Assembly: GCA_973895155.1 (NCBI GenBank)
Contig: OZ316894.1
Location: 5,294,944 to 5,358,943, forward strand
Length of the DNA stretch: 64,000 nucleotides
Origin: Marsupella aquatica
Lineage: Eukaryota; Plantae; Marchantiophyta
Reading direction: 5' to 3'
The notes under the pieces are model-generated. The model was not told where the DNA came from, did no database searches, and saw only the letters and a list, made by a program, of their open reading frames with translations. This document shows, in pieces, positions 25,447 through 49,804 of this stretch. Both the position numbers and the translations under genes were made by a program. Every line of letters begins with the position of its first letter. Position 1 is the first letter of the stretch.

Positions 25447-25789
25447 TGTTAGGTATTTACTCAAGGTCTAGGGTTATGACATGTAACCATAGTTAGACTA
25501 ACCGTAGTCGGAGACGTGGTTAGGTTAACTAGGATGCACACTATATGCCAAGCGGTGTTTGCTTGGATAAGTGGAACTTAGGCTCATTGTTATGGAGCCA
25601 CTTGAGAGATGAGGAGAGCTTACACTGTGGAGACTTGGTATGACCGACGGGCTTAGAGTTCAGTAAAGCTCTCTTGTGTGTTCCCGTGGACGTAGCCTCG
25701 AGGAGGTGAAACACATATCTCTTGTGTCGACTACTTGCGCGTTGAATGTGTCATGTGCTTATCGTTACGAGTGTCGTCTATGCTCAACA
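25447..25789 (+). repeat. copia 5' LTR
   Basis: tgttaggtat...tgctcaaca. About 10 substitutions relative to the 3' LTR by manual count. Confidence 0.96.
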
Positions 25790-25803: not shown

Positions 25804-26995
25804 ATGCTTGGGAGGTGACGTGTGTTTGTGACGGGATTTTGTGACGGTTTTTCCAGCGTTGAGTGTTGGTGGATTTCCCAGAGTTTCGTCGCATGGAACT
25901 TGGAGTTTATGGGCTCAACGGATAGATCGGGGCAAGGACTTTCTAACGGTGTGAAGAAATTGCTGAATGGAGCTTGTGGTGCAGAGAGATCTAATTTTTC
26001 ATCGTTCTGGATTTTGTGAAGAAAGTCGGCAACATTCATGTTCGACGGTTTTTTGGAGGAGGGACCAGAGTTTGTTTTCTTGACGATGTGAGCTCTATGG
26101 TGAAGGAGGCATTGCATGCTGTAGCTCTGCTTGTAGATCGGGATGAGCTGTTTGTTTTGGTAGCTGATTTATTACCAAGTGAGTACCGTGTGCGACGGGA
26201 CGAGCAAAAGAAGCGTTCTGATTTTCTGACCGGTTATGGAGTCTTATTTTGCCTGAGAGGGGTTTCTTGTCGTGGCAATCGACTCGGAGGGAGAAACGTC
26301 AAGTGTTTTGACTCAACGGAGAGATTGAGGCAAGACGATTGTTTTGAGTCCGGGATTGGCTCTTTGATGCGAAGAGGAAGGCTAAGCAAAATCAATTACC
26401 TTGTTGGACTTGGTGACGGCACCAAGTGCAATTCATCAACATTCGTTGTTGACAAGGTACCATTTTTTTCTCTTTGAAAAACTGATTCAAAATTGGCTAT
26501 GGCGATTGAGAGAAATCTGTCATCTTTACTAATTTTTTTCTCCCTCGTTCTTTCTTCGTTTTGGGTGTTTCTTATATCGATCTTCACCGCCTCGGAGTCT
26601 AGTTTCCAAATCTGAAATTAGATCTTGATTTTGTGTGACGGGTACCCCGTCACGGGAAGTCACACATAACTGGTTGCAAAGGCCGATACCTTGTTAATAG
26701 TCAATGTAAATAAGCCATTTTTTAATTTTTAGTTAATTCCGTCATTATAGGTTGATGATGCCCCAGGTGACTTTATATTCTTTCTCTCATAATAGTTCTA
26801 AGATTTGCGGCGACCTAAGTGGGCAAATATTTTGGGACCTTGAAACTAGCCAGGACCAGCCCCATAGGACTTACCGTTTTGCTTCAAGAGCTATTGTTGA
26901 GACCCCCATTGCAAAGTCAGGAGAGGGGGGGGTTTTTTTTTAAATAAATCCCTCCTCAGGAGGGCGAGTCCCATTAGTGGCCGTCCGAGAGAAAG

Positions 26996-27316
26996 AGGGG
27001 CTGCCTCGCGAGCCCATAGGGCTGCGTGCCCGGGCGATTAATGGGGCTCCGCGAGCTGAAGGGGCTGCCTCGCGAGCCCATAGGGCTGCGTGCCCGGGCA
27101 ATTAATGAGGTCCCGCGAGCTGGGAGGATCACGCGAGCGGGGGGGAGTTAAAGGGCCTCCCGCGAGCTGGGAGGATCACGCGAGCGGGGGGGAGTTAAAG
27201 GGCCTCCCGCGAGCTGGGAGGATCACGCGAGCGGGGGGGAGTTAAAGGGCCTCCCGCGAGCTGGGAGGATCACGCGAGCGGGGGGGAGTTGAAGGGCCTC
27301 CCGCGAGCCGGGAGGA
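26996..27316. repeat. GC-rich tandem arrays in the gypsy LTR: 2 x 64 bp, then ~4.4 x 47 bp (copy at 37688-38008)
   Basis: The 47-bp unit tcccgcgagctgggaggatcacgcgagcgggggggagttaaagggcc starts at 27111, 27158, 27205, 27252 and, partially, 27299. Confidence 0.95.
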
Positions 27317-27739
27317 ATGGCCGCGCGCCCTGCATAGGGCCGCGCGCAGGAGGACGCAAGGGTAAGGCCCGAGAAATGGGCCGGGGCGCATGGCGAAGGC
27401 GCCAGGAGTTTTTTCGGTTCTATTTTTTTTTCCTTCCTTTTTCTTTCCCTCTTCCTTTTGCACGACCCTCTCATTGCCGAAAGCAAAAACGGGGTTCTTC
27501 TCTCTCTTGCCGGAAGCTCTCTCCAGATTCTAATTATTTTTGAAGCTCTCTCTTTCATGGTGGATTAGTGGGGCTTGCTGGCGTCATTCTTCCAGGCATT
27601 AGTGGCGGCCGCACGGAGTAGTGACGGGAAATTGAGAGAATTTAAGTGATCGGGCTACGGGGGCTGTTTCGGGCCAGGGAATTGACATTGCCACGGGTGA
27701 CGGGATTGGTGATTGAGAAATTGATTTCGGGATGCATGG

Positions 27740-29596
27740 ATGCTAGATCAACCAGAGTTTAGTGCGTCACGCATTCGGAGATACAAGGCTGCTTACCGTG
27801 ACTACGTGGAGACTCGGATTACACGGGAAAGGGAAGAGAGAGAAGTTATGATGAGCACGGGATTGGCAGCGGGTTCCTCACCGGTGGGTAGGAAGATTTT
27901 TCGTCAAATTTATCCCAAGACCTCCACCAAGGTGATGGAGGATTGTCGGAACATTTTCCAAGCCACCGGGCTTACAGAATTCATGAAGGTGGAGATTACC
28001 ATCCCTTCAGGGAAGAGCTGGGACATTGAGGCCGGGATGGAGTTCCGAACGGAGGGAATCTACTTTGAATGTCTCAAACGTGTAGTGCCCCATGTGGAGT
28101 TGGCTAAGCTATTGTTTCTTGAGAATCAGAAATTCTCATTCACACCTCGGAATATCAGGGGAGAACTCACGTTGAAAATGGTGGCCACTTGGGTGACCAA
28201 TCCTACCTCCACCACCGCCATCCCTCTTTCTGCTGTCAAGGATGTTGAGTATAAGGGCTTCCTGGCCAAGGTGCATCAACGGGTTCTTGGCAACGTGCAA
28301 TCCGGAGTGCTGAATGAGGAGCATTTCGTGGTAGCTATGGACATTAAGAACTACCCAGCCCATGTGTACGGATGGTGGTGCTACGGATTGAAGAAGCTAT
28401 TGGCCGCTGAGCCCGGGAGTGTGAAACCAGGTGGGGCTGTACATTTGATGGGGTCATTTGTATTGGCCAGGGCAGAAGGGTTGATTGGTTCTCCGGGGCA
28501 TGAAGACACGGGATCATCTCTCACCACGGAGATCCGGAGTATTGCCACTACCGTTTTAGGGAAGCTCACGGAGGAATCATTGTCTGCTGGTGGGGAGGAT
28601 AATAGAGAAGAAGAGAACCAGGAGGATGATTGCACATTGGAGTGGCTTGAATCACTCGTGGGAGATCCGAAACAGCCTCTGGAATACAACATTCCGGATG
28701 TTTACTTGGCAGAGCTACGGGATTTCAGAGAGGGAGTCCACGAGGGACTCAAGCTAGTCCACGCATTGAGGGAGTCTCTCAAGCACGCCACAGTCAAAGT
28801 AGAGACGTTAGAGCAGAGCATCCTGTCACTGAAGGAGGTGATCAAGACCAAGGAGCAGACCATTCATGAGAAGGTCAGGCACATCAATGCAGCTCACGTA
28901 GAGATCACCAACTTGAAGGGAGCTTTGTCCACCAAGGCCAAGGAAGCAGAAGAAGTAGGAGCGTTGAGGCAAGCATTGGCCAAAGAGAAGCAAAATTCTG
29001 GAGAAGTGATGGAGTGGAGGAACCAGGTGGGAGCACTACGGAGTCAGGTGGCAGCCTTTGAGACACGAGCGAAGAGAAGTGAGGCCCTGAGTCTAGGGAA
29101 ACGGAAGAGTCCCGGCACACCTGGCTCCACACTTTCCCCGGATGTGATCTCCCAAGCTATCGAGATGGTGGTGAAGGAGGTTAGTGGGAAGTATGGACCC
29201 TTGTTGGATGGAGCCAAGAAGAGTCAGGAGAAGAGTAAGAGCTTGGAGAAGAAGCTCCGGGAGGTACGGAAATCGTTACGGGAGGCTCAGGTCAGTACGG
29301 GGATGCCACCCAGGTCTGTCACCCCCGGGACTCCCATGGCCACGGGGCAAGTTCTACCGTTGGAGTTGCGGTCCGGAGAAGAGGCTACCCTCTGGAAGGA
29401 CACAATTGGTGAGGGGTACATCAAGGCGTGGCAGGCCTTGGCTGCTTTGAGGAAGCGCGGGAGCAGCAGCACTAAGAGTACTCCGTCGAAGAAGAAGAAA
29501 AGTACGGTGGCACTCACTCCCGTGAGTGATGAGGAGGAGGACCACTCACGGGGCACAAGTCCGGGCACCGAGAGCGAAGAAGAAGAGGAGGATTAG
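27740..29596 (+). CDS. LTR-encoded 618-aa accessory protein (globular N-domain, coiled coil, basic and acidic tail), 5' LTR copy
   Basis: Uninterrupted 1857-bp ORF entirely inside the LTR. Heptad-rich segment at about aa 325-515, KKKK basic patch, EEEEED C-terminus. Confidence 0.9.
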   Translation: MLDQPEFSASRIRRYKAAYRDYVETRITREREEREVMMSTGLAAGSSPVGRKIFRQIYPKTSTKVMEDCRNIFQATGLTEFMKVEITIPSGKSWDIEAGMEFRTEGIYFECLKRVVPHVELAKLLFLENQKFSFTPRNIRGELTLKMVATWVTNPTSTTAIPLSAVKDVEYKGFLAKVHQRVLGNVQSGVLNEEHFVVAMDIKNYPAHVYGWWCYGLKKLLAAEPGSVKPGGAVHLMGSFVLARAEGLIGSPGHEDTGSSLTTEIRSIATTVLGKLTEESLSAGGEDNREEENQEDDCTLEWLESLVGDPKQPLEYNIPDVYLAELRDFREGVHEGLKLVHALRESLKHATVKVETLEQSILSLKEVIKTKEQTIHEKVRHINAAHVEITNLKGALSTKAKEAEEVGALRQALAKEKQNSGEVMEWRNQVGALRSQVAAFETRAKRSEALSLGKRKSPGTPGSTLSPDVISQAIEMVVKEVSGKYGPLLDGAKKSQEKSKSLEKKLREVRKSLREAQVSTGMPPRSVTPGTPMATGQVLPLELRSGEEATLWKDTIGEGYIKAWQALAALRKRGSSSTKSTPSKKKKSTVALTPVSDEEEDHSRGTSPGTESEEEEED

Positions 29597-30727
29597 ATAG
29601 GCGTACGGACGTGGGTGTACGGCCTCCAGATTTCCAACATTTTAGTGGGGGGTCACTCATGGGCTTGTTGGGATGAGCTCGCGGAGCTGATTCCAACAAG
29701 AGGCGGCGCTCCTCAAACGGAGCCAGGATGAGCAAGTTATGGCCTGGAGAACTTATGTTTTTGCGGTACGGAAACGGCCATAACTCAGGCGTCTGAAGTC
29801 CGTTGAGGGAGCGACTTAGTGATTCGGAAGCAGGAAAAGAAGAGCTATCCAGGGGTGAGCTCAGGTGTGCACTTGGAAGGGCACCTAGTTTCGGCCATTT
29901 TGGGGTGCCTCTCACTTTCAGGGTTCACGTGTACTGTTGGGGCGCCGTCGAAGGCACCGTCGGCCCCCTTGTTTTGGGTTTAGGGTTTTAGCAGCATGTG
30001 TGTGCCGCATGCTCCTCTTCAGTTTAAGGATTTCTCTTAGTGCAAGGTTTTAGCGGCGCCGCTAGGGTAGCCGCCACCGTTGTGACCCTGTGAGGGGTGC
30101 TTTGGTGTGATTTTTCAGTATTTAGGGGGATAGCCCCGAAGTAGTTAGGGGGACTCAGTGTGAAGTTAGCAAGGAGGGATAGAGTGGAGCCTGAGGAGTT
30201 TGAAAGCGTGTTCAGAGTAGTGAGGGGGAGCCATACTCATTGTCCGGAGAGGCAGGAGTTGAGTAGACGGCAGGAGGCCGGGTTACTCATGCAATGTGTA
30301 TCGTTTTTCCCAAGAGATATGGATCTGTACATTTGACTTGATGGGCTTTTGTTGTGTGTTCCTTCTCCCTTTTTCGCTTTCCGAATTGTGTTCTCCCGTT
30401 CTATGATTTGAAGAAACTTGCTTGGTTTGAGTCGGCCTTGTGAGTAGGGGTGGTGACAGCACTCTTTGGGTGACTCCGAGTGAAGGTGTAGTGGGGTAGT
30501 CGGCAGGACTTGATCAAAAGCTGTGGGGTGAGGGTAGTCGGTAGACTTGATCAAAACCTACATTTCCGGGAGCGGAAACCAAAATACTCATCCTGGTGTG
30601 AAAAGAATCCAAATAGCGTCCCTCCACGACCCCGTAATACGATACCAACGGTTTAAGCGAAGAAAAGTGCGGTTTGCACGTATTAACCGTTGGAGAGGCA
30701 AGTGACATAAGTGAGGTCTTTTGTTTT

Positions 30728-30745
30728 TGGCGCCGCTGCCGGGGA
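30728..30745 (+). promoter_or_regulatory. gypsy primer-binding site, tRNA-Asp type
   Basis: tggcgccgctgccgggga differs by one base from the Athila-type TGGCGCCGTTGCCGGGGA and lies 20 nt downstream of the LTR end. Confidence 0.85.
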
Positions 30746-30962
30746 ATCCTTCTTCTTGTTTGACGACACGAAGGAGGGGAGCTACGTCTATTGGGAGTTC
30801 AAACCTATCAACCACAACGCAACTTGCGACGGTTGATACGTGAGAAGTTTGTTGGTTACTTTGTTATTGTACGTCAACCACAACGCATCGTGCGACGGTT
30901 GATGTTTACAAATATTGCTTTCTGAGACATTGGTGTAAGTTTGGAATGCAGGTCTCAATGGG

Positions 30963-33900
30963 ATGCCGAGAGGGAGAAGGGGAGGTAGAGGAAGTCCCCA
31001 ACACACACGTACCCCAAGATCAGAGCTAGAAGGGGGGCCCTCTTGGATTGGGACCAGACGACGAGTTGCTGCCGAAGAACGCTTACGGCTTGCAGAAGAG
31101 AGGAGGTTGCCACTGGTGCTGGAAGAACAAGTTGGTGTGCAACAGGAAGAGGCTCAACGTAATGAGGCCATATGCCCAGACGAAGAGCCAGACATAGATC
31201 ACGAGCGAGAAGAAGGAGAGCCCTTTGTGTTGGTGCAGTCTGAGTTACAAAATCTGATCCCAGAGCTCACTGCATTGCCACAAATCATCTCACACCTATC
31301 ATCGGTGCTGTTACCGGTGGCCCAACAAGCGCCATTACCACCTGTGTTGATACAGGCACCGGCTGCACCGATGGCAGCTGCACAACGTACCCGTGTTCAG
31401 TACGTACCCTTCAAGGGGAGACCAAAGGATGATCCAGACGAATGGATTGAGGAGTTTGAAGGGATTGCCGAAGCTAATGGGGAGTCTGCACATAAGCTCA
31501 CTATCATTCCTGGAATGATGAGAGGGGAGGCAGGTCCATGGTTCATTTCGTTGTTGGCCAACGTGAAAGCTGATTGGGCTCTGTTCAAGCAAGCCTTCTT
31601 GAAGGAGTTCAGATCCATAGGAGTGGAGGCCACCTCACTATTAAAGGTGGGCCAACTCAGGATGAAGAAGAAGGAGTCATTACGGAGGTTTTTGCAAAGG
31701 TTCCAAAAGCTGGTACGTCGGATCCAAGCCCGTACCGATGATGCTATGCGTCAAGCCTGGTTTGTGGCTGCCCTACCAAGCAAGATGGGGTTCTTTGTAC
31801 GTCAAGCCAAGCCAACCACATTGGCTGAAGCTATTGCAGCAGCGGAGTCATACACCGCAGCTGATGCCACAAGCAAGCGTTGCCGAAGAAAGAAGCTGAA
31901 GCCGGTTGACAGTTCCTCCAGTGAGGAGTCGAGTGGATCTGATTCAGATAGTAGTGATGAATCTGAGGATTCTGAGAGTACTACAGAGTCAGACACTACG
32001 GAGTCAGAAGCTGAAAGACGAAGGAGGAAGAAGAAGAAGTTGTCAAAGAAAGTCAAGAAGTCCTCTCACCGTGAAGTGATACTACCCACGGTGGCCGTTA
32101 CACCATTGTCTACGGCAAGACGCCTGAAGGAGCAAGAGGCCAGATATGATGAGCTGACGGAGCAAATGAAAGCGTTGAAAGTACATTTTGCCGGACTCAA
32201 ACCTGAGAGGAGAAAAGTTCCGGTGGAGAGAGCCAATGTGTGGTGCACCAAGTGCATGAAGTTTGGTCATGCCCCGAAGGAGTGCCCAGCGGGAGAACCA
32301 GCCAAGGTTTTCCAAGTACGGGAGGAGGATGTTGAGGGGGCAAGCTACTCAAATCCTTCATATGCAGCGGAAGGGCCAATAGAGTACTTCATGGAGGAGC
32401 CACCAGAGGCCAACGTGTATAGTGTACAACCTCTCAACCCGGGACCACGGAGCATTCATGGAGTTTCAACAAACGCCGGAGCACCCGCATACTCCAACTA
32501 TCCCAACGCTAACCCAGGGAATCGACCACCGTACCCTGGAGTGAGGAAGATCCCTATTTGTTACAATTGTAGAGTGGCGGGCCACTACGCTAATGTGTGC
32601 CCAGAGCCCACCCGTCAAGGCAATGGAGATTTTGCCCGGCTGTGTCAACTATGCAAGGGGGAGGGTCATCTTGCACCACACTGCCCAACCTTGGAGGCGT
32701 TCAAGGCTCAACCGATTGGGGCACAAGAGAAGAAGGGGCCGCCACCTCCTCTGAAAGAAGCTAGCGTCAACTTTCTCACCACGGAAGCAGTCGACACCCC
32801 TCTAATCACTAGAAGAGAAGAAACCGTAGTGAACATTCCCAAGCAAAGGATGACCACCATAACGGAGGAGGTGGTACCGCTAGTCGTTGTAGTATCTCCA
32901 GTTGTTGAGATACCGGTGGTTGTTGTTGCAACATCTACGGAAGTTGAAGTTGCTAACCCCTCACCCCCAAGTCATGAGTGGACTCATGCTGAGAATCTAC
33001 CGGAGGAAGACAGCGACGAGGAGAGAAGGCATTACTCTTGTTACCGAGTCTCCACTCGATCCGGCAAAAAGAAGGGCAAGTCCGAGCTCAAGCAGAAGTA
33101 CAAGGAGGTGCATCAAGCTTCCACATCGGGTACCTCACACGAACCGGAGGTGCCACCCATGGAGGATAGTGACTTTGATCGGGACAACCCCAAGTTGTTC
33201 TATCCGAAGGTGGGAGAAGAGGTACGTAAGCAGTTGGAGGAGCTAGAAGCACAAGCCATGCAAGCGGCCATTGACAAAGACATGGAGGAGGCAAAGGCCA
33301 GAAAGAAAGCGGAGGAGAGGGTTGTTCGTTGGAAACCGGGAGAAGAGGTCATCCCACCCATACCTCCTGCAACCGCGTACAACATTGCTCAAGACATTCT
33401 GGATTGCCCAGTCAGTGCCACAATTGGTCAACTATTACGGGATAGCTCCCTATACCGTCGCCAAGTCAAGGAGATTCTCATGAGGAGGAGACGTAGAAGA
33501 AGGTTACCCAAAGTTGGGGCTGACCCCATACAAGTCAACTGGGTCACGGAGGATTTGGGTGCCCCAGAACTCACGGTGGACATCAATGGATGTGCAATAC
33601 GGTTTGTACCGGTGGACGGGGGCTCGGGAGTCAACATCATGACTGAGGAGACGGCAAACCGGTTGGGGTATACAGAGTTAGAACCACCGGCACGTGCCAT
33701 GAGGTTGGCTGATGGTGCACGGGTGGTGCCGTTGGGGTGTCTCACCAAGATTCCAACAATGATTGGGGGAAAATCTTTCCCCCTCAACTATTTGGTGATG
33801 CGACCCGTTCGGCCGTACGGTTTTCCCATTTTAATTGGCAGGCCATGGTTGTATGTGGCCAAGGTCACAAGTGATTGGGGCAAACGGCAGTTTCGGTTTG

Positions 33901-36900
33901 GTATCCCCACTATCACTATTCCATGGTCAGCGGAGTCACCTCACGGGGAGACTACGACTATGGAGGAGGAATATGATTCAGAGGTCACCTCAGATGAAGA
34001 CGAGGATGAAGTATACATGGTGAAACTGATTTCTCACCTCACGGAGGAAGATGTTTTTGGCCCCGGAGTTGCTACTCAAGAGCATGCAGTAGAGGAATCA
34101 GTTAGCCAAGTGCACGCTGTTCTAGAAGAGATGGAAGACGAGCGAAGCAAAATTGTGGAGGCTGAACCTCTAGAGATTCATGATAGGGAGGCAGAGGATC
34201 ACCCCGAGGAGGTGGAAATGCAAGCCCACACGATCATGTTTGATGATGAGCAAAGAGAGCAGTTTTTGAATGACATCCTGGATGATGACTTTAGAGAGGA
34301 GCTATTGTCACATTACAAAGAATCTGACGTTGAAGAAATAATGGCCCATGTGACAAAGGATCCACCTCCATCCCGACCAGACCAGGAGGAGAGTGATGCA
34401 CCGGTGTATGGAGGGATGAGGCTCGCACGGTTGGAAGAAACCTTTGATGAGGAGACACGCAACAAGTTGGACGTGATCAGGCCGGAGCAGTACACAAAGG
34501 TGGAAGTGGGTGAGGGCAAGACACTCAACATTGGTAGTAAGTTGGATGCTACGGAGCAACGCACGATTCAGGAATTGTTGAAAGAGTACCAAGACGTATT
34601 TGCGTGGAGCCACCAAGATTTGAAAGGAGTGCCACCTGAGTTTGGTGAGCACAGCATTGACCTGATGTCAGGAGCACGACCTGTGAGGCAACGCCAATAC
34701 CGCCTCAACCCCAAATACTCACTCATGGTGAAGGAGGAGATTGACCGTTTGTTGGATGCAGGATTCATTTATCCGGTCATGCATAGTGAGTGGGTGTCAC
34801 CCATCGTAATCGTGCCCAAGAAAAAGGGGCCAGACGGGAAGGTGAAAATACGGGTGTGCCAAGATTTTCGAAAGTTGAATGATGCGACCAAGAAGGATCA
34901 CTACCCGCTACCGTTCACGGATATCGTGTTGGACATGGTAGCAGGTTGGGAGATATACAGCTTCTTGGATGGCTACTCTGGGTACAACCAAATCTGGATA
35001 CGGGAGGAGGACCAACTCAAGACGGCTTTCACAACAGAGTGGGGGATTTTTGCATTCCGGAGAATGCCTTTTGGGTTGTGCAATGCCCCTGGCATGTTCC
35101 AACGGCTCATGATGAATATATTTCATGACTTTTTACGCAGGTTCTTGGAGATCTTTATTGATGACTTTGCTGTCTACGGCAAACGAGTCAAGCATCCGGA
35201 ACACTTACGGTTGACTTTTCAGCGGTGCCGGGAGACTTGCCTGAAGCTGCATCCGGAGAAATGTTTCTTTGGAATTGAGGAGGGAATCCTATTGGGCCAC
35301 AAAGTGTCTGCACGAGGGATTGAAGTTGATCGTGAGAAGGTCGCCGTGTGGGTAGCAGTCTCATTTCCCAAGAATGTGAAGGAAGTGAGAGGGTTCTTGG
35401 GGTGTGTTGGCTACTACCGACGCTTCATCAAAGACTTTGCCAAGGTAGCCATGCCACTCACTTCCATGTTGAAAAAAGGAAGTGAGTTTGAACCTACTCC
35501 TTCCCGTCAGGCTGCTTTTGATGAATTGAAGAAACGATTGCTAGAGGCCCCCGTGCTCATTACGCCCAATTGGAATAAGGAATTCCATGTTTACGTAGAC
35601 GTATCAGGATTTTGCATCGGTGCCGTTTTGAGTCAGTTAGATGATGATGGAAGAGACCATCCCATCTACTTTGCCAGTAGGCAGTTGGCCCCGGCAGAGA
35701 AAAACTACTCACCCACCGATAGGGAGGCACTTGGTATCATCTACGCTTGTAAGAAGTATCGTCATTATTTGTTGGGGTACAAGGTTGTGTTCCACACGGA
35801 TCACAACAGCTTGAAATACATGGTCAACAAGCCAGATCTGTCCGGGAGAATTGCACGTTGGGTTTTGTTGCTACAAGAGTTCAACTATGAGGTGAGAGTA
35901 AGATCGGGGAAGAGTCATAGCAATGCAGACTTCTTCTCCCGTATTGAGGGAGCATCTGACTCCCAGGAGATTGATGATCGGTTCCCGGATGAGGAAGTAT
36001 TCAGCGTGAATACAGAGGCCACTACTTGGTATGGAGAAATTTTGGAATTTCTCCGCACGGCTAGAGTTCCCTCACGTTTGGGCCCGGAGAGAGCAGCAGT
36101 GTTTTTGCGTAAGACAGGTCCCTACTTGCTTGTGAAGGGAGTACTTCACAAGTACGGCATGGATGGCCGACTTCGTCGTTGTTTGGAGGAAGCGGAGATA
36201 CGTACAGTCATGGCAGCATTACATGAGGAGGAAGCTGGTGGCCACTTTGCACGGGAGACCACCGCAAGGAAAATACTAGATGCTGGATATTGGTGGCCAA
36301 CTCTCTTTCGGGATGTACACCGGTACATCCAGCGATGTGATCCGTGCCAGCGTCAAGGCAAACCAGGGCCCTCCTCACGACACCCATTGGTGCCCATACT
36401 TCCTCTTGCACCCTTTGAGAAGTGGGGGGTGGACTTCATTGGCCCTTTCACTCCCATCACACGAAGAGGGAGGAAGCGCTACATCATTCTTGCAACGGAC
36501 TATGCCACCAAGTGGGTGGAGGCCCGAGCTACTGCCAAGGATGATGCCAACACCACGGCACGTTTTTTGTATGAGCAGATTTTTACACGATTTGGTCCAC
36601 CATTGGAGTTGGTAAGTGACAGGGGTACTCACTTCCTCAATCATACGATTGAACGTTTGACGGAGAACTACTTGATCTCACATAGGAAGACCACTCCGTA
36701 CCACCCTCGAGCCAACGGGCTCACTGAGAGAGCCAACGGGATCATGGGCAAGATCCTCAACAAAACGGTATCCGCTCACAAGACCGATTGGGATTTGAAG
36801 TTGTTGGCTGCCACTTACGCTTACAACCTGGCTCACAAGACTACCACGGGCCACAGCCCCTATTTCCTTGTGTTTGGACAACACTCTCTTGTGCCGGTGG

Positions 36901-37361
36901 AATTTGAGGTTCCAACCATTCGAATCCTAACACGGGAAAGGGAAGGGGCAGAAGAAAGTGTCGCTTCACGGATCCAACAGTTGGAGCAACTCACGGAGAC
37001 ACGAGAAGAGGCTTTGACACATACGGAGCAGGAGCAAGGCAAACGCAAGTCACATTACGATTCCCGTCTCCGTCGTGTGTCCATTGAGGAGGGAGATTTG
37101 GTGCTCCTCTACGATAGCCGCTTCATGCATTTCCCCGGGAAGTTGCATACACGGTGGATGGGACCCTACGTAGTGGATGCCGTCTACTCCAACGGCTCGG
37201 TTCAACTCAAGACATTGGAGGGGCAACTACTCAACACACGGATCAATCAAGAGCGCCTAAAGAAGTACTACACGGAGGAAGAGTATGGTGCTCGCGGGGG
37301 CGCTTCGCAATTAAGAGAGGAGCTATGTGACGGGTACCCCGTCACGGGAAGTCACACATAA
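30963..37361 (+). CDS. Ty3/gypsy Gag-Pol polyprotein, intact
   Basis: Gag (FKGRPKDDPDEWIEEFE), three CCHC knuckles, protease VDGGSGVNI, RT (CQDFRKLN, MPFGLCNAP, FIDDF), RNase H (VDVSG, NYSPTDRE), integrase HHCC, DDE and GPY. No chromodomain. The stop codon lies inside the 3' LTR. Confidence 0.97.
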   Translation: MPRGRRGGRGSPQHTRTPRSELEGGPSWIGTRRRVAAEERLRLAEERRLPLVLEEQVGVQQEEAQRNEAICPDEEPDIDHEREEGEPFVLVQSELQNLIPELTALPQIISHLSSVLLPVAQQAPLPPVLIQAPAAPMAAAQRTRVQYVPFKGRPKDDPDEWIEEFEGIAEANGESAHKLTIIPGMMRGEAGPWFISLLANVKADWALFKQAFLKEFRSIGVEATSLLKVGQLRMKKKESLRRFLQRFQKLVRRIQARTDDAMRQAWFVAALPSKMGFFVRQAKPTTLAEAIAAAESYTAADATSKRCRRKKLKPVDSSSSEESSGSDSDSSDESEDSESTTESDTTESEAERRRRKKKKLSKKVKKSSHREVILPTVAVTPLSTARRLKEQEARYDELTEQMKALKVHFAGLKPERRKVPVERANVWCTKCMKFGHAPKECPAGEPAKVFQVREEDVEGASYSNPSYAAEGPIEYFMEEPPEANVYSVQPLNPGPRSIHGVSTNAGAPAYSNYPNANPGNRPPYPGVRKIPICYNCRVAGHYANVCPEPTRQGNGDFARLCQLCKGEGHLAPHCPTLEAFKAQPIGAQEKKGPPPPLKEASVNFLTTEAVDTPLITRREETVVNIPKQRMTTITEEVVPLVVVVSPVVEIPVVVVATSTEVEVANPSPPSHEWTHAENLPEEDSDEERRHYSCYRVSTRSGKKKGKSELKQKYKEVHQASTSGTSHEPEVPPMEDSDFDRDNPKLFYPKVGEEVRKQLEELEAQAMQAAIDKDMEEAKARKKAEERVVRWKPGEEVIPPIPPATAYNIAQDILDCPVSATIGQLLRDSSLYRRQVKEILMRRRRRRRLPKVGADPIQVNWVTEDLGAPELTVDINGCAIRFVPVDGGSGVNIMTEETANRLGYTELEPPARAMRLADGARVVPLGCLTKIPTMIGGKSFPLNYLVMRPVRPYGFPILIGRPWLYVAKVTSDWGKRQFRFGIPTITIPWSAESPHGETTTMEEEYDSEVTSDEDEDEVYMVKLISHLTEEDVFGPGVATQEHAVEESVSQVHAVLEEMEDERSKIVEAEPLEIHDREAEDHPEEVEMQAHTIMFDDEQREQFLNDILDDDFREELLSHYKESDVEEIMAHVTKDPPPSRPDQEESDAPVYGGMRLARLEETFDEETRNKLDVIRPEQYTKVEVGEGKTLNIGSKLDATEQRTIQELLKEYQDVFAWSHQDLKGVPPEFGEHSIDLMSGARPVRQRQYRLNPKYSLMVKEEIDRLLDAGFIYPVMHSEWVSPIVIVPKKKGPDGKVKIRVCQDFRKLNDATKKDHYPLPFTDIVLDMVAGWEIYSFLDGYSGYNQIWIREEDQLKTAFTTEWGIFAFRRMPFGLCNAPGMFQRLMMNIFHDFLRRFLEIFIDDFAVYGKRVKHPEHLRLTFQRCRETCLKLHPEKCFFGIEEGILLGHKVSARGIEVDREKVAVWVAVSFPKNVKEVRGFLGCVGYYRRFIKDFAKVAMPLTSMLKKGSEFEPTPSRQAAFDELKKRLLEAPVLITPNWNKEFHVYVDVSGFCIGAVLSQLDDDGRDHPIYFASRQLAPAEKNYSPTDREALGIIYACKKYRHYLLGYKVVFHTDHNSLKYMVNKPDLSGRIARWVLLLQEFNYEVRVRSGKSHSNADFFSRIEGASDSQEIDDRFPDEEVFSVNTEATTWYGEILEFLRTARVPSRLGPERAAVFLRKTGPYLLVKGVLHKYGMDGRLRRCLEEAEIRTVMAALHEEEAGGHFARETTARKILDAGYWWPTLFRDVHRYIQRCDPCQRQGKPGPSSRHPLVPILPLAPFEKWGVDFIGPFTPITRRGRKRYIILATDYATKWVEARATAKDDANTTARFLYEQIFTRFGPPLELVSDRGTHFLNHTIERLTENYLISHRKTTPYHPRANGLTERANGIMGKILNKTVSAHKTDWDLKLLAATYAYNLAHKTTTGHSPYFLVFGQHSLVPVEFEVPTIRILTREREGAEESVASRIQQLEQLTETREEALTHTEQEQGKRKSHYDSRLRRVSIEEGDLVLLYDSRFMHFPGKLHTRWMGPYVVDAVYSNGSVQLKTLEGQLLNTRINQERLKKYYTEEEYGARGGASQLREELCDGYPVTGSHT
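37313..37322 (+). promoter_or_regulatory. gypsy polypurine tract, inside the integrase coding sequence
   Basis: aagagaggag ends 3 nt before the 3' LTR start at 37326. Confidence 0.75.
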
Positions 37362-40300
37362 CTGGTTGCAAAGGCCGATACCTTGTTAATAGTCAATGTA
37401 AATAAGCCATTTTTTAATTTTTAGTTAATTCCGTCATTATAGGTTGATGATGCCCCAGGTGACTTTATATTCTTTCTCTCATAATAGTTCTAAGATTTGC
37501 GGCGACCTAAGTGGGCAAATATTTTGGGACCTTGAAACTAGCCAGGACCAGCCCCATAGGACTTACCGTTTTGCTTCAAGAGCTATTGTTGAGACCCCCA
37601 TTGCAAAGTCAGGAGAGGGGGGGGTTTTTTTTTAAATAAATCCCTCCTCAGGAGGGCGAGTCCCATTAGTGGCCGTCCGAGAGAAAGAGGGGCTGCCTCG
37701 CGAGCCCATAGGGCTGCGTGCCCGGGCGATTAATGGGGCTCCGCGAGCTGAAGGGGCTGCCTCGCGAGCCCATAGGGCTGCGTGCCCGGGCAATTAATGA
37801 GGTCCCGCGAGCTGGGAGGATCACGCGAGCGGGGGGGAGTTAAAGGGCCTCCCGCGAGCTGGGAGGATCACGCGAGCGGGGGGGAGTTAAAGGGCCTCCC
37901 GCGAGCTGGGAGGATCACGCGAGCGGGGGGGAGTTAAAGGGCCTCCCGCGAGCTGGGAGGATCACGCGAGCGGGGGGGAGTTGAAGGGCCTCCCGCGAGC
38001 CGGGAGGAATGGCCGCGCGCCCTGCATAGGGCCGCGCGCAGGAGGACGCAAGGGTAAGGCCCGAGAAATGGGCCGGGGCGCATGGCGAAGGCGCCAGGAG
38101 TTTTTTCGGTTCTATTTTTTTTTCCTTCCTTTTTCTTTCCCTCTTCCTTTTGCACGACCCTCTCATTGCCGAAAGCAAAAACGGGGTTCTTCTCTCTCTT
38201 GCCGGAAGCTCTCTCCAGATTCTAATTATTTTTGAAGCTCTCTCTTTCATGGTGGATTAGTGGGGCTTGCTGGCGTCATTCTTCCAGGCATTAGTGGCGG
38301 CCGCACGGAGTAGTGACGGGAAATTGAGAGAATTTAAGTGATCGGGCTACGGGGGCTGTTTCGGGCCAGGGAATTGACATTGCCACGGGTGACGGGATTG
38401 GTGATTGAGAAATTGATTTCGGGATGCATGGATGCTAGATCAACCAGAGTTTAGTGCGTCACGCATTCGGAGATACAAGGCTGCTTACCGTGACTACGTG
38501 GAGACTCGGATTACACGGGAAAGGGAAGAGAGAGAAGTTATGATGAGCACGGGATTGGCAGCGGGTTCCTCACCGGTGGGTAGGAAGATTTTTCGTCGAA
38601 TTTATCCCAAGACCTCCACCAAGGTGATGGAGGATTGTCGGAACATTTTCCAAGCCACCGGGCTTACAGAATTCATGAAGGTGGAGATTACCATCCCTTC
38701 AGGGAAGAGCTGGGACATTGAGGCCGGGATGGAGTTCCGAACGGAGGGAATCTACTTTGAATGTCTCAAACGTGTAGTGCCCCATGTGGAGTTGGCTAAG
38801 CTATTGTTTCTTGAGAATCAGAAATTCTCATTCACACCTCGGAATATCAGGGGAGAACTCACGTTGAAAATGGTGGCCACTTGGGTGACCAATCCTACCT
38901 CCACCACCGCCATCCCTCTTTCTGCTGTCAAGGATGTTGAGTATAAGGGCTTCCTGGCCAAGGTGCATCAACGGGTTCTTGGCAACGTGCAATCCGGAGT
39001 GCTGAATGAGGAGCATTTCGTGGTAGCTATGGACATCAAGAACTACCCAGCCCATGTGTACGGATGGTGGTGCTACGGATTGAAGAAGCTATTGGCCGCT
39101 GAGCCCGGGAGTGTGAAACCAGGTGGGGCTGTACATTTGATGGGGTCATTTGTATTGGCCAGGGCAGAAGGGTTGATTGGTTCTCCGGGGCATGAAGACA
39201 CGGGATCATCTCTCACCACGGAGATCCGGAGTATTGCCACTACCGTTTTAGGGAAGCTCACGGAGGAATCATTGTCTGCTGGTGGGGAGGATAATAGAGA
39301 AGAAGAGAACCAGGAGGATGATTGCACATTGGAGTGGCTTGAATCACTCGTGGGAGATCCGAAACAGCCTCTGGAATACAACATTCCGGATGTTTACTTG
39401 GCAGAGCTACGGGATTTCAGAGAGGGAGTCCACGAGGGACTCAAGCTAGTCCACGCATTGAGGGAGTCTCTCAAGCACGCCACAGTCAAAGTAGAGACGT
39501 TAGAGCAGAGCATCCTGTCACTGAAGGAGGTGATCAAGACCAAGGAGCAGACCATTCATGAGAAGGTCAGGCACATCAATGCAGCTCACGTAGAGATCAC
39601 CAACTTGAAGGGAGCTTTGTCCACCAAGGCCAAGGAAGCAGAAGAAGTAGGAGCGTTGAGGCAAGCATTGGCCAAAGAGAAGCAAAATTCTGGAGAAGTG
39701 ATGGAGTGGAGGAACCAGGTGGGAGCACTACGGAGTCAGGTGGCAGCCTTTGAGACACGAGCGAAGAGAAGTGAGGCCCTGAGTCTAGGGAAACGGAAGA
39801 GTCCCGGCACACCTGGCTCCACACTTTCCCCGGATGTGATCTCCCAAGCTATCGAGATGGTGGTGAAGGAGGTTAGTGGGAAGTATGGACCCTTGTTGGA
39901 TGGAGCCAAGAAGAGTCAGGAGAAGAGTAAGAGCTTGGAGAAGAAGCTCCGGGAGGTACGGAAATCGTTACGGGAGGCTCAGGTCAGTACGGGGATGCCA
40001 CCCAGGTCTGTCACCCCCGGGACTCCCATGGCCACGGGGCAAGTTCTACCGTTGGAGTTGCGGTCCGGAGAAGAGGCTACCCTCTGGAAGGACACAATTG
40101 GTGAGGGGTACATCAAGGCGTGGCAGGCCTTGGCTGCTTTGAGGAAGCGCGGGAGCAGCAGCACTAAGAGTACTCCGTCGAAGAAGAAGAAAAGTACGGT
40201 GGCACTCACTCCCGTGAGTGATGAGGAGGAGGACCACTCACGGGGCACAAGTCCGGGCACCGAGAGCGAAGAAGAAGAGGAGGATTAGATAGGCGTACGG

Positions 40301-41399
40301 ACGTGGGTGTACGGCCTCCAGATTTCCAACATTTTAGTGGGGGGTCACTCATGGGCTTGTTGGGATGAGCTCGCGGAGCTGATTCCAACAAGAGGCGGCG
40401 CTCCTCAAACGGAGCCAGGATGAGCAAGTTATGGCCTGGAGAACTTATGTTTTTGCGGTACGGAAACGGCCATAACTCAGGCGTCTGAAGTCCGTTGAGG
40501 GAGCGACTTAGTGATTCGGAAGCAGGAAAAGAAGAGCTATCCAGGGGTGAGCTCAGGTGTGCACTTGGAAGGGCACCTAGTTTCGGCCATTTTGGGGTGC
40601 CTCTCACTTTCAGGGTTCACGTGTACTGTTGGGGCGCCGTCGAAGGCACCGTCGGCCCCCTTGTTTTGGGTTTAGGGTTTTAGCAGCATGTGTGTGCCGC
40701 ATGCTCCTCTTCAGTTTAAGGATTTCTCTTAGTGCAAGGTTTTAGCGGCGCCGCTAGGGTAGCCGCCACCGTTGTGACCCTGTGAGGGGTGCTTTGGTGT
40801 GATTTTTCAGTATTTAGGGGGATAGCCCCGAAGTAGTTAGGGGGACTCAGTGTGAAGTTAGCAAGGAGGGATAGAGTGGAGCCTGAGGAGTTTGAAAGCG
40901 TGTTCAGAGTAGTGAGGGGGAGCCATACTCATTGTCCGGAGAGGCAGGAGTTGAGTAGACGGCAGGAGGCCGGGTTACTCATGCAATGTGTATCGTTTTT
41001 CCCAAGAGATATGGATCTGTACATTTGACTTGATGGGCTTTTGTTGTGTGTTCCTTCTCCCTTTTTCGCTTTCCGAATTGTGTTCTCCCGTTCTATGATT
41101 TGAAGAAACTTGCTTGGTTTGAGTCGGCCTTGTGAGTAGGGGTGGTGACAGCACTCTTTGGGTGACTCCGAGTGAAGGTGTAGTGGGGTAGTCGGCAGGA
41201 CTTGATCAAAAGCTGTGGGGTGAGGGTAGTCGGTAGACTTGATCAAAACCTACATTTCCGGGAGCGGAAACCAAAATACTCATCCTGGTGTGAAAAGAAT
41301 CCAAATAGCGTCCCTCCACGACCCCGTAATACGATACCAACGGTTTAAGCGAAGAAAAGTGCGGTTTGCACGTATTAACCGTTGGAGAGGCAAGTGACA
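37326..41399 (+). repeat. gypsy 3' LTR (4074 bp)
   Basis: Near-identical to 26634-30707 and followed by TSD TTTTG. Confidence 0.97.
38432..40288 (+). CDS. LTR-encoded 618-aa accessory protein, 3' LTR copy
   Basis: Same ORF as 27740-29596 apart from one Q/R change (FRQIY vs FRRIY) and one silent change. Confidence 0.9.
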   Translation: MLDQPEFSASRIRRYKAAYRDYVETRITREREEREVMMSTGLAAGSSPVGRKIFRRIYPKTSTKVMEDCRNIFQATGLTEFMKVEITIPSGKSWDIEAGMEFRTEGIYFECLKRVVPHVELAKLLFLENQKFSFTPRNIRGELTLKMVATWVTNPTSTTAIPLSAVKDVEYKGFLAKVHQRVLGNVQSGVLNEEHFVVAMDIKNYPAHVYGWWCYGLKKLLAAEPGSVKPGGAVHLMGSFVLARAEGLIGSPGHEDTGSSLTTEIRSIATTVLGKLTEESLSAGGEDNREEENQEDDCTLEWLESLVGDPKQPLEYNIPDVYLAELRDFREGVHEGLKLVHALRESLKHATVKVETLEQSILSLKEVIKTKEQTIHEKVRHINAAHVEITNLKGALSTKAKEAEEVGALRQALAKEKQNSGEVMEWRNQVGALRSQVAAFETRAKRSEALSLGKRKSPGTPGSTLSPDVISQAIEMVVKEVSGKYGPLLDGAKKSQEKSKSLEKKLREVRKSLREAQVSTGMPPRSVTPGTPMATGQVLPLELRSGEEATLWKDTIGEGYIKAWQALAALRKRGSSSTKSTPSKKKKSTVALTPVSDEEEDHSRGTSPGTESEEEEED

Positions 41400-41923
41400 T
41401 TTTGTCAAAACCTGAGTGAGATATCTTGCGTTTGGTGTTGAGGGGTACATTCTACCGTGTGTATTTTCTGCGCGCGCGACCAGATTTTGACGACGAAGGG
41501 TGCTAGGGGGTTTTGGGGGTTCGAGGACATGTGTCAGCCCCTCAATTGCTCTTCCAAAATCCCAGCAGGGCCTGTACAAGGGTCATAGAATATTCCAAAA
41601 AACCAGAGAGCTATTTTTTGTCCGTCCGTCAAAGATTCCGTCTGCCGGAAGATAATTTTTTTTGTTCGTCTTCGGCAAGTTGCTAGCCATCGGAGTTGGC
41701 AACGTGGTGCACAAATTTAATTGCATTTCAAACGTCGGGTACTAGTTCACATTTTGGTTATTCCCCGAGGTGGTCAAAACGGGGGAGAATTCCATGTTTT
41801 ACCCACCCCGACCGAAAAGTGAATAACTTTTACGTCGGAGTTTGGTTTTGATTTTAGTTTTCAGCATTGGAAAGCTAGGCTTGTGGGCTACGTTGCGGTG
41901 ATAACTTTTGAGTTTTTTAAGAA

Positions 41924-43791
41924 TGTAGTTTGCTATGAAGAACCAAAAACACACTTAAAGGTCTTCAAACTCGGTATTCGTTCCCATAAAGAACAAGATG
42001 GGGTTGGTTTGATAGATTTAAACAATAATAAAGAACTAAAAATGTTTTCCATACATAGTAATCAAGTTTGATTACTTTAATAAGGTATTTTGAAGATCGC
42101 TCCACAGCGGTGAGTAGTTTTCAATGATAACTCAGCATCAGGTAACCATAAATTAATGAAAAAAGAATGATTAACAAAACACAAGAGAAAATAATCTCAA
42201 AGTATGCTAAGGGAGTCTGGAATAGACCAAGGTTACTCCTTAGACATAAGTCAAAATGAAAAGACTTAAGGATTCAAATCCATATTGTTTTTCAGATCTA
42301 AACTGCTTACTAGAGTACCTTTTAAAATGCCGTCAACATGTCTTATCCTTTCTTTCTAAGTGGTACTCAGATAAGATCTAAAAGAGAGGCTACTTCAACA
42401 TTTAGATGGTACTAAGCAACATGAAAGAAAATCCATCAATTCCAATAAGACTTAAACTCAATGAGTTAACTTTAAGAACTCAGGAAATTGTAATGAGTTA
42501 CCAAAGAGGAATCTGTCATCACAAGATCCAAAGATTTCTTACAAATGGATTTTACTTCCTGTGTTTATAATCAAAGGTAAAAACACAAGAAGGAGGTAAG
42601 TCTCTCCAAATGTTAAACCTGATCTCAAACTCATAGATTCATGATCAACTAGTTTAACACAAGGAAAAGGCAAAAATGCATAACTTAACCATCCTTCTAC
42701 ACTAGTGGTGGAGGGGTCTTATAGTAAAAGCCTACAGGGTAAGAGGTCATAGGGTCGAAGAGACATGCCTCTTCATACTCCTCAAAAAGTCAAAACAGCG
42801 ATTCAGTAAGTGAAAAGCCGGGAAATGGCTAAGTAAGAACCCGTAAAAGCGTAAAAGCGTAAAGACGTAATCGCGTAAAAGCGTAAAGACGTAATCGCGT
42901 AAAAGCGTAATCTGGTGAATGCGGTAGACTTAAAGACTTACCGAATTCAACTATTTTTAACTTTCTACTCCTAGCTCGGAAAATTCTGAAATTTTGCCAG
43001 TAGGTTTTCCTAGGTACAGACTACACACTAAATAAGTTTCATAGCTTTTAAAGCTCTATAACACATTTTGAAAAATAGGAAAAGATGCACTATTCTTAAA
43101 ACTTAAATAAAAAGACTTAGATTCTGCCTCAAGCTTGTTGTCGGATGTCTTCTAGTTCGAGTAGCTCCACGAGAGTAACAGTCCGAGCTTGAGTAACTTC
43201 CATCAGCTCAGCCTGGCGTGGGGATCCTCGAGAGTAGGGTAGGCATCTCAATTGCCTTTGAGGATACATCAAAGGCATCCTCTTCATCAAATAACATGAG
43301 TCTATACGAAGAGCTTCTCTGTACATCCCGATCACATCATAGTTGTTGCAGGTAGCAGCATACACTTGGGGATAATGAGACAGGAACTCATCACTATTCA
43401 TCATCCTGGAATAGAAGGGTCGAAGTCTCCATTTGACATCTCTGAAATATCGGTTGAAGCTGGCCAGAGTTTGAGAGGTAAGGTGGAAGAAAAGTCAGTA
43501 ATGAGCGCCTATATCTTGCATTCCTTCCCTTCCAAGGTGAGCTCTTCATCCGTTGTGGAGTCCCGTTGAACTAGCCGTAAGATATCACGATCATAGGGTC
43601 GCCAACTCTTGAGGCGTAACTCGTAAAGCAGTGAACTAGTAAACTCGTAAACTGAGTTTACTCGTAACTTAGGAACTTAGTAACTTTGAATGTTGTTTCA
43701 GTTACAGTTAGCAATAATTGCAGTCTAAACACCATAAAAAATTTAAAAATTTTCAGTTTCTTCATGATTTTGGAATTACCCACTACTTACA
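41924..43791. mobile_element. Probable solo LTR (1868 bp) of a different retrotransposon family, in the copia 5' UTR
   Basis: Begins TGTA, ends TACA, and is flanked by the 5-bp direct repeat AAGAA (41919-41923, 43792-43796). AT-rich, with no RT or transposase. Orientation uncertain. Confidence 0.7.
42842..42913. repeat. 8-bp-period array, 9 x CGTAAnnn, with a 24-bp higher-order unit
   Basis: cgtaaaag cgtaaaag cgtaaaga cgtaatcg cgtaaaag cgtaaaga cgtaatcg cgtaaaag cgtaatct. Confidence 0.92.
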
Positions 43792-48250: not shown

Positions 48251-48593
48251 TGTTAGGTATTTACTCAAGGTCTAGAGTTACGACATGTAACCATAGTTAG
48301 ACTAACCATAGTCGGAGACGTGGTTAGGTTAACTAGGATGCACACTATATGGCAAGCGGTGTTTGCTTGGATAAGTGAAACTTAGGCTCATTGTTATGGA
48401 GCCACTTGAGAGATGAGGAGAGCTTACACTGTGGAGACTTGGTATGACCGACGGACTTAGAGTTCAGTAAAGCTCTCTTGTGTGTTCCCGTGGACGTAGT
48501 CTCGAGGAGGTGAACCACATATCTCTTGTGTCGACTACTTGCGCGTTGGATGTGTCATGTGCTTATCATTACGAGTGTCGTCTATGCTCAACA
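48251..48593 (+). repeat. copia 3' LTR, preceded by PPT aagggggaga (48240-48249)
   Basis: Direct repeat of 25447-25789. Confidence 0.96.
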
Positions 48594-49804
48594 GGTCTTT
48601 TCCAGTTTGAGCTCTAGCTCTGTCTGAGAAGTCCCAATCAGCAGGCAATCTATCACATCTCTCATCCTCCACAGTCATGTTATGTAAAATGACACAAGCC
48701 AGAAGGATGTCCTTGATTTCATGTTGATAGTGCATTCGAACTGGGTTCTTCACAATTGCAAATCGCTGGTGCAAAACACCAAAAGCCCTCTCAACATCCT
48801 TCCGGGCCCCCTCTTGGCACTTAGCAAACCATTTTCTGGCAATTCCTTGTGACAATTGAATAGTTTTAATGAAGATGGACCAGTCTAGATAAATGCCATC
48901 AGTGAGCAAATAATACCTACCATAGTGGTGACCATTCATAGTAAAACCAACCTCATTAGCTTCACTTCTCAGGAAATTGTTGACCAAAGGGAAACGATCC
49001 AGCACATTCAAGTCGTTATTTTCACCAGGCAATCCAAAGTAGGCATGCCAAATCCACAGGGATTGATTTGCTTTGGCCTCCAAAACAATGGATTCCTCTC
49101 CGTCCTTGTTGGCGAAGAGCCCTTGCCAAGCCACAGGACAATTCTTCCACTCGTAGTGCATACAATCCAGAGATGCAAACATACTAGGGAAACCACGCTA
49201 TTCATTGATTTGTAATTGATTGATGATGTCCTCCTTGGTGGGCTGTCTGAGGTACTCCTCATAATGCTCTCTAACAGCAGAACAAAATCGCTTCAAGCAT
49301 TTCATGGCAGTGCTCTCTCCAATCCGCACATATTCATCAAGGGCATCAGCAGAGACACCATGAATGCATCCTTAAAGTAGCAGTCAATTTTTGGATTGAA
49401 GATAATCCAAGAATTCCCGCAGCATTTCGATTCTGGATGAAATACGGATCGACCTTGCACACAGCATCATGAATTCGCCAAAAGAGAGGTCTTCTCATTC
49501 TATACCTTCTTTTGAAATGTCTGTCAGTGTAGACTGGAGACAGCGAAATAGTCCTTCCAAATTCGCTCATGGCCTTGTACTCTGTCCCGATCAATGTTCC
49601 TTCCCTTTCCTGGCCTTGATCCACCAGTCCTCGCTTCCTTGGGCCCTGTTCGTAGTTGTTAAAAACTGATCCTGCCACCACAATAGTCTCCCACCATGTT
49701 TGCTCCTCATCATCCCATTCTTGATAAGCTTGCTCGATCTGCCTCTTCAAGTTTTCTCTCCATTGTATGAGTCGGTCAGATGCTGTGCTTCCAAGTCTGT
49801 TCAA
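48594..49804 (-). pseudogene. PIF/Harbinger DDE transposase (ALP1-like/Plant_tran type), disrupted
   Basis: FKRRYRMRRPLF, GLSSIQKLTATLR, SLDCMHYEWKNCP, LWIWHAYFG, NNDLNVL, YYLLTDGIY, RKDVERAFGVL, ACVILHNM. Frameshifts present; start position approximate. Confidence 0.92.

Follow-up and report, generated by a model that had tools for sequence, protein, structure and literature searches.

A young Athila-like retrotransposon in the liverwort Marsupella aquatica with an intact accessory reading frame inside each long terminal repeat

The 64,000-nt stretch of Marsupella aquatica DNA analyzed here (contig OZ316894.1, positions 5,294,944 to 5,358,943; hereafter the window) contains a retrotransposon of 14.8 kb in which each of the two long terminal repeats (LTRs) holds a complete open reading frame (ORF) of 618 codons. 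Based on the LTRs, the target-site duplication (TSD), the primer-binding site (PBS), the polypurine tract (PPT), and the order of the protease (PR), reverse transcriptase (RT), ribonuclease H (RH), and integrase (INT) domains, it is a Ty3/gypsy element. The element is young, intact, and multi-copy, and its layout is family-wide. In a preliminary description of this DNA, coordinates had been given for the element, its LTRs, and its ORFs, and each insertion had been proposed to deliver two gene copies; self-BLAST and the ORF positions agree with all of these, and the whole ORF is present in each LTR (Table 1).

Self-BLAST of the window aligned 26634-30708 with 37326-41400 as a gap-free direct repeat of 4075 columns with 99.95% identity. 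The T in the final aligned column matches by chance, and the LTRs were accordingly set one base shorter. The two copies differ at two sites: 27906/38598 (A/G, Q>R) and 28345/39037 (T/C, silent). The earlier delimitation by TG..CA ends, TTTTG TSD, PBS, and PPT was borne out. The element is inserted in the leader of an older copia element, which has a TSD of its own (GGTCT), its own PBS and PPT, and LTRs that differ at 10 of 343 bases; nesting in an element with its own LTRs and TSD confirms the boundaries of the gypsy insertion. Two differences per 4,074-bp LTR pair correspond to an insertion age of ~19,000 years at an assumed rate of 1.3e-8 per site per year (95% range 2,000-68,000), or ~80,000 years at 3e-9, likewise an assumed rate. 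The youth claimed for the element is thus upheld.

The single gag-pol ORF extends 36 nt into the 3' LTR, and no internal 3' spacer separates the two. A Pfam search (E<=0.1) found neither an aRH domain nor a chromodomain in gag-pol; the RH-INT gap is 103 aa, and the PR-RT linker is acidic. We take the PBS to be of the tRNA-Asp type. The usual distance of a PBS from the LTR end is 0-5 nt. The spacer of the window element is 20 nt (30708-30727), and a related gypsy locus (L001) has the same PBS after a 19-nt spacer (L001:1551-1569); both spacers end in TTGTTTT. An Rfam search gave one chance match (E 0.58).

Table 1. Features of the gypsy element and its copia host element (positions within the window)
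Feature	Position	Strand	Details
Copia element around the gypsy element	25447-48593		LTRs 25447-25789 and 48251-48593, 343 bp, 97% identical
5' target-site duplication	26629..26633	+	TTTTG
5' LTR	26634..30707	+	4,074 bp, TG..CA; self-BLAST
GC-rich tandem arrays	26996..27316	+	64 bp x2 and 47 bp x4.4; candidate enhancer or binding array of the LTR protein
Pyrimidine-rich stretch	27400..27560	+	candidate core promoter or 5' untranslated region of the LTR gene
Accessory ORF, copy 1	27740..29596	+	618 aa
N-terminal globular domain, aa 57-241	27908..28462	+	predicted PMD/Transposase_32/ATHILA/DUF1985-like fold
Coiled-coil region, ~aa 338-515	28751..29284	+	generic coiled-coil matches below cut-off
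Bipartite basic motif resembling a nuclear localization signal (NLS), aa 571-587, and acidic tail, aa 593-618	29450..29596	+	tail 46% D/E
GGCCC and one exact telobox	29962..29988	+	telobox as reverse AAACCCTAR at 29980-29988; candidate second promoter module, for genomic RNA
TGTA and T-rich tract	30290..30430	+	candidate poly(A) region, by comparison with plant signals
PBS-like 18-mer	30728..30745	+	TGGCGCCGCTGCCGGGGA; 20 nt past the 5' LTR end
Paired leader hairpins	30806..30903	+	near-identical, differing loop triplets; candidate packaging/dimer signals; whole-leader z only -1.76
gag-pol, single ORF	30963..37361	+	2,132 aa, GAG-PR-RT-RH-INT
PPT	37313..37322	+	AAGAGAGGAG; within the integrase read-through tail, 3 nt ahead of the 3' LTR
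3' LTR	37326..41399	+	4,074 bp, TG..CA; self-BLAST
Accessory ORF, copy 2	38432..40288	+	618 aa
3' target-site duplication	41400..41404	+	TTTTG

The accessory ORF occupies LTR positions 1107-2963, with 1,106 bp of LTR before it and 1,111 bp after it. Its length is far from that expected by chance: in 300 base shuffles of the LTR, the longest stop-free frame did not exceed 275 codons (mean 153). Among 1.84 billion representative proteins, 13 homologs were found at E<=0.001, nine of them fragments; the four that are named (CAM6083533.1, CAM6090912.1, CAM6129071.1, and CAM6126659.1) all come from the leafy liverwort Calypogeia fissa. Jointly, the 13 homologs cover 618/618 positions at 21-60% identity. 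Conservation is highest in the N-terminal domain and in the C-terminal blocks and lowest in the acidic linker, and one homolog (P0001) begins at the same methionine, which supports the ORF start. Codon usage correlates with that of gag-pol at 0.73, compared with 0.46 and 0.26 for the shifted frames and 0.30-0.41 between the ORF and the host genes of the window. Of 11 LTR indels in the 12 rows listed among 34, one fell within the ORF, where it comprised a whole codon and kept the frame; these indels are clustered and the signal is weak. Taken together, the sequence comparisons indicate that the accessory ORF is an old gene under selection. Word-index protein searches returned no homolog, and one of them was so insensitive that it missed even proteins of its own alignment; among viral and metagenome contigs, no locus related to the ORF was found.

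Sequencing depth was used to examine the layout across the family. Eight public runs contain parts of the element, and six of these contain half or more of its words; none of the public runs listed that contain the element is an RNA run. Pieces from four of the eight runs were mapped over 27500-38050, which covers the LTR except for ~140 bp, and 32 of ~4,950 piece rows were listed. Runs X7 and X8 were left out, as they have only low-depth pieces and conserved pol parts. Ratios were calculated from pieces that were exact or had one difference (seven of eight listed rows each in X1 and X2, with one diverged row dropped per run). In X1, two non-coding LTR pieces had 2.22 and 2.16 times the mean gag-pol depth; in X2, three pieces inside the ORF had 2.21, 2.26, and 2.26 times the gag-pol depth, and the LTR start had 2.01. 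An ORF internal to the element would give a ratio of one, so that the two-fold depth points to a family-wide layout and argues against a misassembly. Furthermore, the first base of one X1 piece coincides with LTR base 1, which is what a junction with many different flanks should produce. At both LTR mismatch sites, the runs read the letter of the 3' LTR, such that ORF copy 2 has the family-majority letters.

The gag-pol depth suggests 43 and 48 copies in the two runs, a rough estimate in which the single-copy reference is one diverged piece per run and depth is not itself a copy number; X1 may come from the source sample. The depth excess over two is 0.0-0.26, within the scatter between pieces, and would allow at most about one solo LTR per four full elements. 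In X2, the summed depth, which likewise is not a copy number, rises from 11-15 thousand in the ORF to 28-35 thousand in the terminal 1.1 kb of the LTR; related elements that share the LTR end may account for this. X2 also contains a diverged relative of the LTR ORF that is in frame (loose end at window position 28326), so at least two families of that genome have the gene.

The LTR protein is predicted to consist of the globular domain, an acidic linker, a conserved W..L.GD...P motif, the coiled coil, the NLS-like motif, and the acidic tail, in this order. Its highest 19-residue hydropathy is 1.09, and it has no membrane helix. Searches of Pfam, NCBIfam, and PDB and one profile comparison assigned no family to it; the PDB profile search gave four matches, with a best E of 0.2. 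The clue to its identity came from a Calypogeia homolog (P0009), residues 12-199 of which align to residues 57-241 of the query at 28% identity. With the Atlas model of this homolog, eight of ten structure rows had TM scores of 0.60-0.71 by query over 168-185 residues. The clusters matched were Transposase_32 (TM 0.69/0.65, 185 aa), ATHILA (0.71/0.59), PMD (0.65/0.57), and DUF1985 (0.60/0.56), and PF29561 was also among the labeled rows. An Atlas feature search with the query itself returned the ATHILA and Transposase_32 clusters at 0.83, as a lead only. The structure rows are mutually consistent and match both the feature search with the query and the lineage of the element; on these grounds, the N-terminal domain quite likely has a fold of the PMD/Transposase_32/ATHILA/DUF1985 kind, and the protein probably belongs to this known group as a distant member.

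For the lineage, the closest named polyproteins are those of Riccia sorocarpa (57-59%) and Marchantia polymorpha (49%), followed by those of flowering plants (mostly ~44%). In RT-RH trees (one with 65 rows that include 64 of 120 proteins, the other with 32 of 33 chosen proteins), the window element belongs to a clade of eight rows with 99/99 support, together with environmental sequences, and lies outside the angiosperm clade (100/99). These trees were built without REXdb-labeled Athila, Tat, Phygy, and Selgy references. The TSD length, PBS type, single ORF, and absence of aRH fit Athila and do not fit Phygy, Selgy, or Tat, and we refer to the element as Athila-like rather than as Athila. No pol-related locus was found among viral and prokaryote contigs, and a PBS-motif search found no related locus. 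The related locus L001 (gag 44% identical) contains an intact 80-aa Elf1/ELOF1 ORF at 1998-2237 (PF05129, E 2.8e-28). Located between PBS and gag, it is a captured host gene, i.e., a 5' extra ORF.

In the LTR upstream of the accessory ORF, two different repeat units together hold 12 copies of CGCGAGC (27007-27308), at a distance of 430-730 bp from the ATG. All 27 matches to this motif in the window are inside the gypsy element, with 12 in each LTR. Downstream of the ORF, the telobox (consensus from 10.1101/2024.09.27.615353, in part) and GGCCC may mark a second promoter, and the T-rich TGTA region beyond them a poly(A) site. This arrangement would place the ORF in U3, as in sag of mouse mammary tumor virus (MMTV), a placement that we consider somewhat favored.

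Relatives of this fold have been linked to transposon silencing. VANC is a DNA-binding anti-silencing protein of transposons, and its DUF1985 domain is similar to the PMD of MAIL1; PMD proteins are found at DNA motifs and counteract H3K27me3 (10.1101/2024.09.27.615353; 10.1101/2024.04.02.587720; both in part). Oligomerization through coiled coils is predicted for both VANC and the Athila domain (PMC13547354, in part), and H3K27me3 is placed on transposable elements in Marchantia (PMC11982613, in part). The window element is a young, intact, multi-copy retrotransposon with a conserved gene in both LTRs, and we find it about an even call that the product of this gene acts in the nucleus and binds DNA, as an anti-silencing factor or a transactivator akin to PMD, VANC, and Athila-ORF proteins.

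The simplest route by which the gene may have entered the LTR is a shift in priming. Genes with an ATHILA ORF-1 domain are 3' and in sense orientation (166 hits among 167 elements; PMC6317226 additional file 4, in part), and the ancestral gene would have been such a usual 3' extra ORF of an Athila-like element. If plus-strand priming then shifted to a purine tract directly behind the integrase, the 3' spacer would have become U3, and its tandem repeats and ORF would now be copied to both ends of the element. We infer this origin from the position of Athila extra ORFs and from the integrase, which reads through the PPT: the integrases of relatives end where that of the window element continues for 24 aa through the PPT into the LTR. 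In the resulting LTR, an upstream U3 promoter would drive an ORF mRNA terminated by the poly(A) site of the LTR itself, and genomic RNA would start at the second promoter near the telobox, comparable to MMTV sag. The protein could oligomerize by its coiled coil, bind the CGCGAGC array of its own LTR, and prevent DNA methylation or Polycomb marks on the LTR, both in cis and in trans, and such a positive loop would serve all copies of the family. A solo LTR would retain promoter, array, gene, and poly(A) site. A further extension, which we put forward tentatively and regard as doubtful, is that each LTR and any solo LTR acts as a self-sustaining switch that protects the family in trans, and that Athila ORFs and VANC belong to one ancient counter-silencing toolkit dating back to liverworts.

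Several points weigh against this interpretation. With regard to the fold, Pfam assigned no family to the N-terminal part, with none of ATHILA ORF-1 (PF03078), Transposase_32 (PF20167), PMD, and DUF1985 above cut-off, and hhalign against one Transposase_32-bearing protein gave a probability of 0.1. Every Atlas structure row was below the naming bar; the P0009 model has a mean pLDDT of 0.51 and is only 28% identical to the query, and the feature scores of 0.83 and 0.89-0.91 are leads only. The single-sequence and eight-sequence AlphaFold models are poor (pLDDT 34 and 48), and fold searches with them gave nothing at E<=0.001. Athila ORF1 and Transposase_32 are themselves without an established function. 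As for the regulatory sequence, the CGCGAGC count is inflated by tandem duplication, such that a shuffle control overstates the enrichment, and the motif could be a site for a host factor. No canonical TATA box was found, and the placement of the two promoters and of the poly(A) site is guesswork. Concerning the origin, we found no clean relic of a PPT followed by TG behind the ORF. The LTR placement of the gene is established for the family of the window element only; in L001, the presumed LTR tail (1,550 bp, up to the contig end) contains no homolog of the ORF.

The main rival to an anti-silencing role is a structural or targeting role. Here, gene and fold would be the same, with the protein serving as an oligomeric scaffold or assisting in nuclear import or target-site choice rather than in regulation. 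The long coiled coil fits such a helper, as do the pentamers predicted for Athila-domain proteins (PMC13547354, in part) and the nuclear import roles proposed for plant extra ORFs (PMC7264820). However, VANC also oligomerizes by a coiled coil, the only characterized relatives of the fold act on chromatin (both as described in the available parts of the sources), and an acidic tail together with an upstream motif array suits a regulator; we regard the helper role as unlikely, yet as the first to be considered. An env-like fusion protein, a reading in keeping with the env-like label given to sense extra ORFs of Athila (PMC7264820), is highly improbable: the lack of a membrane helix (the hydropathy maximum given above) indicates that the LTR protein is not env, it has a basic NLS-like motif, and a search with a low-confidence model found no viral fold. 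It is improbable, too, that the ORF is a captured host gene or a neutral passenger retained merely through the youth of the element. L001 did capture the host gene Elf1, and the named homologs are annotated as C. fissa proteins. Nevertheless, the homologs are scattered, divergent fragments as in a transposon family, the codon usage is nearer to gag-pol than to the host genes of the window, and the fold matches are transposon domains.

Two other alternatives concern the layout. The ORF could lie in an R region of 3 kb, in which case the genomic RNA would start upstream and serve as the ORF mRNA, and gag-pol would be expressed from a spliced RNA that skips the ORF and PBS. The strongest promoter-like stretch is indeed upstream of the ORF, and GGTAAG at 27361 resembles a splice donor and TGCAGG at 30947, just ahead of the gag ATG, an acceptor. 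On the other hand, under this scheme the RNA would be 14 kb long and transcription would have to pass a poly(A) site located 3 kb after the cap, the telobox and GGCCC behind the ORF provide a conventional second promoter candidate, and motif matches alone prove nothing. We view it as possible but less probable than placement in U3; as it concerns placement only, it can be combined with an anti-silencing role. The least probable alternative, and one that we consider exceedingly so, is a misassembly or a one-off duplication that imitates long LTRs. Repeats with 99.95% identity could raise this suspicion, and the preliminary description had named it as a finding that would undo its reading. Against it stand the TG..CA ends, TSD, PBS, PPT, and nesting in copia, as well as the LTR depth of 2.0-2.3 times that of gag-pol in two runs of two studies and the piece that starts at LTR base 1.

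Other features of the window were noted. The copia element has an unusually long leader (~3.5 kb without the gypsy insertion, including an 8/24-bp array at 42842-42910), and its ORFs are split over three frames. A Harbinger-type transposase fragment at 48535-49182 (PF04827, E 3.4e-68) overlaps at its end with the copia 3' LTR, and the copia element may have inserted into this fragment. Flanking the nested elements are two alpha/beta-hydrolase-NB-ARC-LRR immune-receptor-like genes on the minus strand (6931-13212 and 50220-56549) with 87.6% identity; hydrolase-NB-ARC-LRR genes are typical of liverworts. A Myb-type gene exon is present at 61241-62398 and an F-box-associated propeller ORF at 15694-16323.

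The extra ORFs of plant LTR retrotransposons are described as internal, and plant LTRs of up to ~5 kb are described with no mention of genes within them, in a review (PMC7264820) and in the available part of the REXdb survey (PMC6317226); the statement in the preliminary description that such ORFs normally lie in the internal region agrees with both. Our literature searches, which covered few subscription papers, found no retrotransposon whose LTRs enclose an entire protein gene, with MMTV as the only confirmed LTR ORF, and the available parts of PMC1560396, PMC5408684, and PMC6431247 contain no LTR-internal ORF. A protein gene inside the LTR is thus probably undescribed in plants. If the protein belongs to the Athila-ORF1/Transposase_32/PMD/DUF1985 group, the novelty is in the place of the gene and not in its class. 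The earlier interpretation holds for the architecture, the youth, the two gene copies, and the exclusion of a one-off event, and is supplemented by a gene class that is likely known.

What the extra ORFs of Athila, Ogre, and Retand do is a standing question, and among 145 expressed elements in the Arabidopsis reference, not one has an intact ATHILA polyprotein (10.1101/2024.04.02.587720, available part). The role of accessory genes in Athila-type elements now becomes directly testable: gene, promoter, and candidate target array are together in a 4-kb unit of an intact and very young element, and this unit could serve as a reporter in Marchantia, in which transposons are likewise silenced by Polycomb. 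A coding LTR would also alter the outcome of solo-LTR formation, as the usual way by which a host deletes an element would spare the regulator. Moreover, pipelines that seek extra ORFs only between the LTRs would overlook genes inside them.

Among known systems, Athila, a non-chromovirus OTA lineage, shares most with the window element, namely, a 5-bp TSD, a single GAG-PROT-RT-RH-INT ORF, and a PBS of the tRNA-Asp type by our own assignment (PMC6317226, PMC11728184, both in part). The two also have in common the lack of aRH and chromodomain, the length of 14.8 kb, and a sense accessory ORF that is preceded by tandem repeats and has a predicted related domain and an NLS. They differ in that the ORF of the window element is entirely in both LTRs rather than between pol and the 3' LTR, that its pol is outside the angiosperm clade, and that its accessory protein has no Pfam-level match. 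Tat, Ogre, and Retand have the additional aRH domain that the window element lacks. In Phygy and Selgy, the non-chromoviruses of bryophytes and lycophytes, the polyprotein likewise fills nearly the whole internal region, whereas the TSD is 4 bp, the PBS is of the tRNA-Trp or tRNA-Ala type, the length is 4.4-10 kb, and extra ORFs are unreported in the available part of the source (PMC6317226 additional file 5).

Beyond this lineage, foamy virus bel/bet and HIV nef overlap LTRs, and the Cassandra TRIM elements have 5S rRNA sequence within their LTRs. The latter resemble the window element in having a gene-like unit inside plant LTRs but are non-coding, tiny, and non-autonomous. VANC of VANDAL and the host proteins MAIN, MAIL1, and MAIL2 share with the LTR protein the predicted N-terminal fold (TM 0.60-0.65), a coiled coil, and a repeated short motif near the promoter; as far as the available parts of the sources go, they differ in belonging to DNA transposons or host genes of flowering plants and in having tested activity, whereas the gene of the LTR protein lies in a retrotransposon LTR. 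The nearest parallel in layout is MMTV, whose sag/naf ORF is in U3 with its own U3 promoter P2 (PMC9412291, in part). In both cases, a protein-coding ORF within the LTR is duplicated at the two ends of the element; the MMTV gene belongs to a vertebrate retrovirus and encodes an unrelated protein with an immune function, whereas the window element is a plant Ty3/gypsy retrotransposon with a larger ORF.

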